This document shows positions 1 through 3,000 of a stretch of DNA of 7,800 nt, piece after piece. The stretch is from a virus. Lineage: Duplodnaviria > Heunggongvirae > Uroviricota > Caudoviricetes. The stretch covers positions 1 through 7,800 of IMG/VR virus record IMGVR_UViG_2529293076_000033. One strand, written 5' to 3'. Position 1 is the first letter of the stretch. Each line of letters opens with the position of its first letter. Made by a program: the position numbers.

Positions 1-3000
1 GGACTACTGGCATCAACAGGGAGTACAGGCGACTCGTATGACAACGCGATGGCTGAGAGCATCAATGGTCTTTACAAAGCGGAGGTAATACACCGTAAGA
101 GCTGGAAAAACCGTGCAGAAGTGGAACTGGCCACACTAACGTGGGTGGACTGGTATAACAATCGACGATTGCTGGGAAGGCTGGGCCATACTCCTCCGGC
201 AGAAGCAGAAAAAGCTTATTATGCTTCCATCGGAAACGATGATCTGGCAGCCTGAGTTCACAGATAAAACACTCTCCAGGAAACCCGGGGCGGTTCAGTC
301 TGTGGAAATTGGATGATTCCCTTTTTAGCCAGTGTTTCAATAGTTCTCTTAACACTATCTGGTCTGCTTCCCACCAGCTCAGCTATCTCAATACTGGTCA
401 TGGATGCTTTATCGGTAAAAATTTCTGTGTTCATTGTTGGTCTCCTGTGGGCTTGTCATCTTCTGTGTTCGCAAGACCTGGGTGTGTATATGGAATGTTC
501 GGATCCAGATGACAAAGAATGGCAACATCCTCCGGTACACCTCGCGTTTTCCACTTTCCTACGCCTTGACTGCCACGAGTTTTCCCTTTCTTTGGAAATC
601 TTCGACCAATAGCAGCATTGGTTTTGAATTGAATTTTTAATATTTCATAAAGGGTCATTTTTCAGCCTTACATTGACACTTAAGTATCCGCTAATGTTAA
701 GCAATAGAACCCAAAGTATCAAGGAATTCTGCTACTTTGGTATCAAACGCCACAAGGGGAGAGGAAAATGAAATCTTTAGGTGAACGTCTCGTCATCGCA
801 CGACAAAAAGCTGGATTAACGCAAGACGCACTAGCTAAGAAGGCTGGGATCACCAGAGTTGCAATCAGCAAAGCCGAGCAAGGTCTTACAAAAAGCTTCA
901 ACGGTGACACTCTTTTTAAAGTTGCATCTGCTCTGCAATGCTCGCCGCAGTGGCTCCAGAACGGAGACGAAAAAGACAGCAATTGGGAAAATAATGTTAA
1001 ATGCTGCCCTCAGAAAGACATTGCACACTATTACCCCGTGATTAACTGGGTTCAGGCAGGCTTATTTGCTACCACAGGTGATGACTACAACATGTATGAC
1101 CATGATAACTGGAGACATTCCGTAAAATACGCTGGTGAGCGGGGATTCTGGCTGGAAGTACACGGAGACTCAATGACTTCACCTGTTGGTATTACCTTTC
1201 CTGAGGGGATGTCGATCCTTGTCAACCCAGATAAAGAAGTTTTTTCAGGGTGTTACGTAATCGCCAGAAAGAAATCCACCAATGAGGCTACATTCAAAAA
1301 ATATATCTCTGAGATGGGAAGAGCTTTTCTAAAACCCCTTAATCCACAATATCCAATCATCGAAATGGACAATGATTGCGAAATAGTAGGTGTTGTGGTT
1401 GATGCCAGGTGGGATATTTTCTAATCACAACGAAAAAGAAACGATAGTATCAAAAAAAATCTTGCCACACATTGATACCTTAGTTACCATAAAACAAAAA
1501 TCGTAACTGAGGTATCAGCCAATGCACCACAACAAAGCCACAACCCTTGACTGCCTCGAAGAGCTAAAAAATCTCGGCAGCCTCATTACATTAATAGCAA
1601 AATCAGCCCAGGACACTACACTCTCTAACGATATAGAGTCATGCGCTGGGCTCGCATGGGATATGGCAAATAGCATATCTCGCAAGTTATCAGGATCCAT
1701 ATTTTTACAGACTCCAAATACAGAAACAAACTCCCGCATTCGCATGCAACGTGAAGCCTGCGGCTTGACGACCACTGAACTTGCCAGACTACTCGATCTT
1801 GACGAAGAGATTATTCTGCAATGGGAGAGCAGAGAGTGCGAGCCAACCATCAGCATGCTTATCCCCCTGGCAAACATCCTGGGATGCGAACCGCTTTCTT
1901 TGCTGGATGAAAAAGATAGCGCGTCTGTTATTCGCGTAAATGCGCCTGAAGTCTACGTGGAAAGTATTGGCGCACGCATCAAAAGCGCACGTAAAAAACT
2001 GGGCTTAACGGAAGCTGATCTTGCCCGCATGATTAATACCTACAGTGACCCCATAAACGACTGGGAATGCGGCATCTGTGAAGTTCCTGCTGATCAGATA
2101 GTACCACTGGCCAGTGCGCTTAATTGTGACCTGGTGTGGTTGTTAACGGGAAAATCAGAAGCAAAGGAGTAGCAACAATGACTGGCAATATCCATGATAA
2201 GTATGAAGGCTTATGCCTGGCACCGGATTCCTTTGCAAACAATATCCATGATTTATTATGCGCAGTTGTCGTATTACAAATGTCAGACAACGATGCAATA
2301 AAAAGAACAGGTGATGAAGTTCTTGAATTTGCACGTTGCTATGCTGAAGCAGCAGCTGAAAAAGAACTATCCAGTTAAATAAAACATATTATCGCTGAAC
2401 AATATATTACGGCTTAATCGCCGGGGATTATCACACACTTAATCCACTGGAGGCTTTATTATGACTTTTATAAAACATAAGGCATCACACAAAACAGCCT
2501 GTCTTATTGCACAACACGGTGAAAATTACATGCATATTGCCTGCTTATTTCTGCGTAAAGCATACGGGAGATAATAATGCATCAGAAAACAGCAGAACAC
2601 GAACAAACCAGAGTATTGCTGACAATCAAAAACGGGAAAGTAATATTCATTCGCCATGTTCATGACGATGAACTTGTAGGAAGTCTTTCAACATTCCTGT
2701 TTATTGCAGAAAAGGCAGGATATGACGTTATTGCACCAGCAGATGAAGATGAGGAGTAAATATCATGCAATACGCTGAATTCCAGGCTGAAGCAACAGCC
2801 ACAGGTATACGAACTGGCAGTATGACGATTGATTATCACGACGCAATCCGCCGTCTGGATGCCGGTGAATTCGATCATCCTAATGTGAAAGGTTTACGTA
2901 TCCTTCAGTGTCTCGCGCAAGCTGACGAAGCAGGATTACTGGGAAAACTTCCGGTTGAGATGAAGGTTGCCCAGTGGCGATGGTTGTATGTGACGACATT

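Follow-up and report, generated by a model that had tools for sequence, protein, structure and literature searches.

A probable recent IS1203/IS629 insertion in the rha gene of a Stx1a-type lambdoid prophage

The insertion sequence end and the interrupted rha gene

The stretch of DNA examined here (7,800 nucleotides (nt), positions 1 to 7,800 of the IMG/VR virus record IMGVR_UViG_2529293076_000033, Caudoviricetes; hereafter the window) carries one end of an insertion sequence (IS) joined to the early control region of a lambdoid prophage, where it interrupts a gene for a Rha family regulator. Positions 1-297 (+ strand) comprise the 3’ terminal 297 nt of the element, including the C-terminus of the transposase gene orfB and the right inverted repeat, as recognised by identity and by a break in homology. 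Hundreds of annotated IS1203 copies match this segment end to end with 99.7% identity, and over the 297/297 nt a single mismatch was found to a complete 1,310-bp copy of IS1203 and five to an annotated copy of IS629. The right terminus at position 297 reads ...CCCGGGGCGGTTCA (...GGTTCA) and is the same as that of full copies, whose two ends are inverted repeats with 13/13 terminal bases matching, of the 5’-TG...CA-3’ type. OrfB is represented in the window by its C-terminal 84 codons only (1-255, + strand, stop codon at 253-255), in which an rve domain was identified (Pfam rve_3 E=1.8e-12, rve_2 E=5e-7), and the same segment is annotated as an IS1203 family transposase in matching genomes. By these sequence features the element is assigned to the IS3 family as IS1203, an isoform of IS629. 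The match to prophages that lack the IS begins at position 296, as the tip of the element and the target happen to share the bases CA. Target-site duplications of 3 bp and 4 bp were found at other IS629/IS1203 copies. Window position 4 is a C, where all compared IS copies have a T.

On the other side of the junction, positions 298-434 (- strand) encode the first 46 codons of a gene whose IS-free allele specifies a 235-residue protein named ‘Rha family transcriptional regulator’ by PGAP (WP_001090938.1). The open reading frame (ORF) in the window runs from 258 to 434 (- strand) and is a chimera of 58 residues, in which residues 1-46 are identical to WP_001090938.1 and are followed in frame by twelve IS-encoded residues (EPPRVSWRVFYL) and a stop codon (258-297, - strand, by comparison of translations). 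Full-length homologues of Rha amounted to 3,461 proteins at E<=1e-20, with precomputed PF09669 matches on them, and a protein identical to the full-length WP_001090938.1 is encoded on at least 1,000 contigs. PF09669 (Phage_pRha) covers the N-terminal ~100 residues, and the 46-residue stub alone scored 17.5 bits (E=0.006), below the cut-off of 29.9. Since the stub is identical to residues 1-46 of a 235-residue protein carrying PF09669, it is best described, as far as its sequence tells, as a truncated member of the Rha family and not a functional one.

The insertion point lies between rha codons 46 and 47, where it divides a perfect 23-bp palindrome at its midpoint (AATTTCCACAG-T-CTGTGGAAATT, with inverted repeat halves of 11 bp); the palindrome may be a binding site for a protein or may reflect a target preference of the IS. 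In the closest relative this palindrome is located at 11991-12013 of the prophage locus, while only the right half is kept in the window (298-310).

An original prediction, made from this sequence alone, had proposed that an IS3-family element ends at position 297 and cuts a minus-strand gene after about 46 codons. The family was borne out and the end proved to be exact, with the canonical terminus and the homology break coinciding; the cut gene retains exactly 46 native residues and belongs to the Rha family. It had also been considered that 298-434 might have no full-length homologue, in which case the short ORF would not be a truncated gene; the homologues described above speak for truncation.

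A separate lesion of rha was observed in another prophage at yecE (locus L004, 9566-10273), where an otherwise identical gene carries a TCA-to-TAA nonsense mutation at codon 54. Judged from the two alleles, rha was inactivated there by a separate event. The 126-residue rha fragment of that locus was examined as a product of an IS or a scar of its excision, which was ruled out by the nonsense mutation at codon 54.

Immunity region

The gene upstream of rha (431-658, - strand) encodes a 75-residue Cro-like protein and is the first gene of a rightward (pR-type) operon. Its stop codon overlaps the rha start codon (434) by ATGA, and the IS-free genome is annotated likewise, in agreement with the predicted translational coupling of the cut gene to a 75-residue gene transcribed divergently from cI. 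The protein belongs to phrog_4749 (‘unknown function’) and gave no match in Pfam, NCBIfam, a sequence search of the PDB or BLASTP, with an hhalign comparison to YdaS-type Cro also returning nothing. Structure prediction from the single sequence gave a poor model (predicted local distance difference test score, pLDDT, 58), and the fold assignment rests on the alignment-based model, the sole usable one, in which the protein is predicted to adopt an all-alpha Cro fold. Its small size, its predicted Cro fold and the position of its gene, first in the pR operon and divergent from cI, are features of a Cro-type regulator, and the modelled fold therefore places the cut on the pR side of the switch, as had been proposed. 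As a by-product, the orphan family phrog_4749 could be annotated as a putative Cro-fold protein. The orphan protein is conserved, as prophages of Klebsiella, Citrobacter, Salmonella, Yersinia, Providencia, Photorhabdus and Xenorhabdus encode versions of it with 61-95% identity.

The cro-like gene, which is intact, is separated from cI by an equally intact divergent control region (659-767), where operator-like (A/G)GTATCA repeats occur together with a promoter-like site oriented toward the cro-like gene. By consensus match only, the motif was located at 715 and 739 on one side of cI and at 1446, 1473 (- strand) and 1511 on the other, where an 18-nt inverted repeat (1473-1490/1500-1517) lies among the motifs. 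The clusters at 711-745 and 1440-1517 are candidate OR- and OL-type operators. The promoter-like sequence TTGATA-17-TAACAT, likewise a consensus match only, is on the minus strand (722 to 694) and reads toward the cro-like gene.

The cI gene (768-1424, + strand) encodes a 218-residue repressor of the lambda CI type, with a helix-turn-helix domain (HTH_3, E=4e-14) and a LexA-like self-cleavage domain (Peptidase_S24, E=3e-22). The protein aligned over its full length to the lambda repressor structure 3bdn (E=1e-32), with conservation of the motifs VQAG, GDSM and FKK, so that the Ala-Gly cleavage site and the Ser/Lys dyad of a putatively cleavable CI/LexA-type repressor were both identified. The cI region is identical to that of Stx1a phages. 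The repressor, predicted to have been left intact by the IS, was thus found complete in its domains and motifs and identical to the CI of intact Stx1a phages.

This arrangement resembles the CI/Cro switch of lambda in that an S24-domain CI is divergent from a small predicted Cro-fold protein and repeated operator-like motifs flank cI on both sides. It differs from lambda in that the Cro-like protein does not resemble known Cro/YdaS families in sequence, in that its predicted fold is the all-alpha type of N15/P22 Cro and not that of lambda Cro, and in that no N-like gene follows cI; a recognisable N-type antiterminator gene was found neither after cI nor in the leftward operon of the window. 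The first gene after cI (1522-2172, + strand) encodes a 216-residue protein with two HTH_3 domains, which was assigned to phrog_4739 and also matched a phrog for a ‘CII-like regulator’.

Transcripts reading through from the IS would run in the direction of cI and antisense to both the rha stub and the cro-like gene. It had been suggested that the IS end could drive transcription outward into the divergent genes; the element itself reads in the + direction and no promoter-like site was found at its tip on the + strand, which argues against this part of the prediction. A weak terminator-like hairpin is present within the IS end on the minus strand, at no more than chance expectation.

IS-free relatives and the genes beyond the junction

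The closest relative of the window was identified as a prophage of Escherichia coli FRIK1989 (99.96% identical over window positions 296-7800). The closest IS-free relatives are Stx1a-converting prophages of ~50 kb integrated at yecE, with identities of 99.96-100%, and over window positions 296-2400 several named phages (among them Stx1_14040 and Stx1_499) show 100% identity. These named phages belong to a conserved group of Stx1a phages at yecE that has been described in O145:H28 strains (PMC8112680). The window shares with these phages the same cI, cro-like gene, accessory genes, xis and int, and differs from them in that they have no IS and retain an intact rha and an intact 428-residue integrase.

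In the relatives, rha is followed in the same direction by a DUF4222 gene and a second rha-like gene. Beyond these lie the replication genes (O-like, DnaC-like and DnaB), followed by Q and stx1AB, and also genes for holin/lysozyme, terminase, capsid and tail, and nleC. The lytic-side genes that had been expected past the cut, covering replication, Q, stx1, lysis and morphogenesis, are accordingly all present at the corresponding place in IS-free relatives.

Rarity of the junction and a second assembly

The exact 58-residue chimeric product was found on record once (TWQ07079.1, GCA_007846545.1), forming one cluster with one member. The matching contig, VODH01000146.1, stops within the IS, 36 bp beyond the window start. 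The right junction was detected in 0/5,426 complete E. coli genomes, as was the left junction predicted for a simple insertion (...CAATTTCCACAGTC(T)|TGAACCGCC...), and exact-pattern scans for both junctions found none in GTDB representative genomes or JGI metagenomes. Because an independent public assembly has the same junction, the junction is, on sequence identity, not a chance pattern. Given the extreme rarity of the allele and the near absence of divergence in its flanks, the insertion event is judged to be recent and strain-level.

The second IS-bearing contig (L002) is the same as the window over 5-5137, and before ~6800 differs from it solely at positions 5138, 5175 and 6689. Beyond this point (L002 2647-3650 versus window ~6800-7800) it carries a divergent integrase catalytic module, giving 84% identity over window positions 6201-7786, with nearly all of the differences in that interval located beyond ~6800. 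The prophage on this contig adjoins mlrA/yehV, whereas the integrase of the window is of the yecE type. The IS-tagged immunity module, which comprises IS1203 at rha codon 46, the cro-like gene, cI and the accessory genes, is thus found on two integrase backbones with different attachment sites. The simplest account of the two backbones is one insertion followed by recombination within int.

Excisionase and integrase

A putative excisionase of 84 residues is encoded at 6227-6481 (+ strand; Pfam DUF1233, E=2e-29) and corresponds to xisR in a relative. It is followed by a yecE-type integrase gene of 428 codons (6515-7800, + strand) that is split by a 1-nt deletion at position 6689 (GGGGAGTTT to GGGGATTT), resulting in a 71-residue N-terminal ORF (6515-6730) and a C-terminal ORF (6667-7800). 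The retention of a xis-int pair, as originally predicted, therefore does not hold for int, which is a pseudogene in the sequence as given. The deletion is absent from four related loci (L001, L002, L005 and L007), and the frameshifted 71-residue product has no record in the protein collection. The 315-residue C-terminal product is on record, solely in prophages with other lesions, and other copies of the yecE-type integrase gene bear independent frameshifts of their own. Three further single-base differences in the window are unique to it (positions 4, 5138 and 5175).

Interpretation of the insertion

These observations are best explained by transposition of IS1203/IS629 into rha of a Stx1a-type lambdoid prophage, representing recent, early-stage decay caused by an IS of the host and not a domesticated module (probability approximately 0.8). 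A 1,310-bp copy would have inserted between rha codons 46 and 47, in the second gene of the rightward early operon, most likely by simple cut-and-paste insertion, with the remaining prophage persisting past the 1.3-kb element. When a simple insertion was simulated, the IS-derived leader on the distal side offered no start codon, and translation of the rha remainder could first begin at a GTG, codon 47. Precisely this 189-residue product has been deposited for E. coli NE037 (EKH61848.1, from a contig of 4,023 bp). A comparable event is seen in the related Stx2a phage Stx2_499 (LC567824; locus L009, 2988-4297). There IS629 has entered the second rha-like gene (‘phage regulatory protein’) of the same operon by simple insertion, duplicating 4 bp of the target, and the replication genes continue past the element. 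The two cases share the element, the early-right operon, the orientation and the interruption of a Rha-type gene; they differ in that the second rha was hit there and the first, at codon 46, was hit here, and in that here the left IS end and the duplication are out of view and the allele is present in one other public assembly. Together, the 189-residue product and the Stx2_499 insertion hint at a simple insertion.

Rha would be inactivated by the IS. A strong polar effect on the replication and Q genes may also be expected, with pR transcription toward them much reduced, because the IS is antisense to pR, translation stops 12 codons into the element and no N-like gene was seen. Through the combination of polarity with the frameshifted integrase, the prophage would remain immune, making a CI that is still cleavable in a RecA-dependent manner, while being poorly or not able to replicate, excise and reach late expression. 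If the polarity is real, the lysogen would retain superinfection immunity to phages of the same immunity type, and would show less phage release and reduced expression of Stx1 driven from the late promoter.

IS629/IS1203 is the most abundant IS in Shiga toxin-producing E. coli (STEC) of the O157 type and is documented to inactivate and diversify Stx phages (PMC7175801, PMC10758439, PMC8046923). Insertion of IS629/IS1203 is already known as a means by which Stx and other lambdoid prophages of STEC become diversified and disabled, and the relevance of the present case lies in strain-level annotation and risk typing and not in general phage biology. Prophages at ompW have been described to carry multiple inactivations and to be apparently defective (PMC8112680). 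The window resembles this pool of defective prophages in enterohaemorrhagic E. coli in having an IS insertion, an int frameshift and small pseudogenes; it differs in that its lesions appear very recent, being almost undiverged from intact phages, and in that its defectiveness is predicted from sequence.

Several points weigh against this explanation. Neither the left IS end nor the target-site duplication falls within the window or within the sole matching contig, and the 189-residue call in NE037 could have another cause. Polarity, lost inducibility and retained immunity are consequences that we infer. BP-4795, a characterised Stx1 phage, reportedly carries two copies of IS629 (as cited in PMC10758439), so carriage of an IS alone is no proof of a defective phage. 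The int frameshift and the three other unique single-base differences could be sequencing errors, and it is the presence of these three additional differences that makes sequencing error a live alternative for the frameshift.

The original prediction had viewed the locus as a domesticated cryptic remnant. On this reading the IS would mark the edge of the retained DNA, the lytic side having been deleted (by the IS itself or by recombination between IS copies) and the immunity region and accessory genes having been kept for their usefulness. IS629 is reported to cause deletions and inversions in O157 genomes (PMC8046923), the sole matching contig stops within the IS, and the window bears extra marks of decay in the int frameshift and a DUF551 pseudogene. 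For a remnant of this kind, the truncated state should recur in different strains or lineages; nothing pointed to long retention, with the junction in none of the 5,426 complete genomes and in one other assembly, and the flanking DNA matches complete Stx1a phages at 99.96-100% identity. Furthermore, a product of 189 residues starting exactly at the break indicates that at least one genome still carries the remainder of rha, and in a relative IS629 entered the same operon nearby by simple insertion. Domestication is therefore considered unlikely. An assembly artefact, in which repeats led to an IS copy being falsely joined to prophage DNA, would be in keeping with the tendency of IS copies to break or mis-join short-read assemblies and with the end of the matching public contig within the IS. 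As the break coincides precisely with the canonical IS terminus (...GGTTCA) and not with an arbitrary point of a repeat, and as an independent assembly whose integrase backbone differs contains the identical junction, the chance of such an artefact is regarded as very slight.

The two IS-bearing prophages raise a further question of origin. IS629/IS1203 may have struck the 23-bp rha palindrome independently in the window and in the mlrA-integrated prophage of GCA_007846545.1, and in favour of such a hot spot the IS interrupts a perfect inverted repeat with arms of 11 bp, and the two prophages differ in integrase modules and attachment sites. Both copies nevertheless occupy the same nucleotide position in the same orientation, with flanks near-identical up to ~6800, which fits one insertion with recombination in int, the latter being usual lambdoid mosaicism. 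In addition, no other IS was found at the palindrome among the 5,426 genomes even though rha genes bearing it are common, and no apparent target sequence has been reported for IS integration into stx genes (PMC10758439). Independent insertion is thus held to be quite improbable. A broader proposal, that a ‘locked’ IS-tagged module has been spread between Stx prophages by recombination, or else that the palindrome is a hot spot for IS629, is likewise doubtful, if a little less so. If one insertion was indeed followed by movement of the module, the IS would serve as a natural tag of a spreading regulatory module that is immune and non-inducible. For the window itself, recent insertion into a Stx1a-type prophage remains the favoured explanation.

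Other features of the window

Scans of the window with Rfam and for tRNA genes were empty. At position 5138 the window has G where A is found in relatives, and at position 5175 a 1-nt deletion changes CGGGAC to CGGAC; the region of the latter is already annotated as a DUF551 pseudogene in a relative. Two adjacent ead/Ea22-like genes were found to have N-terminal segments (3873-4002 and 4499-4628) that form direct repeats of ~89% identity.

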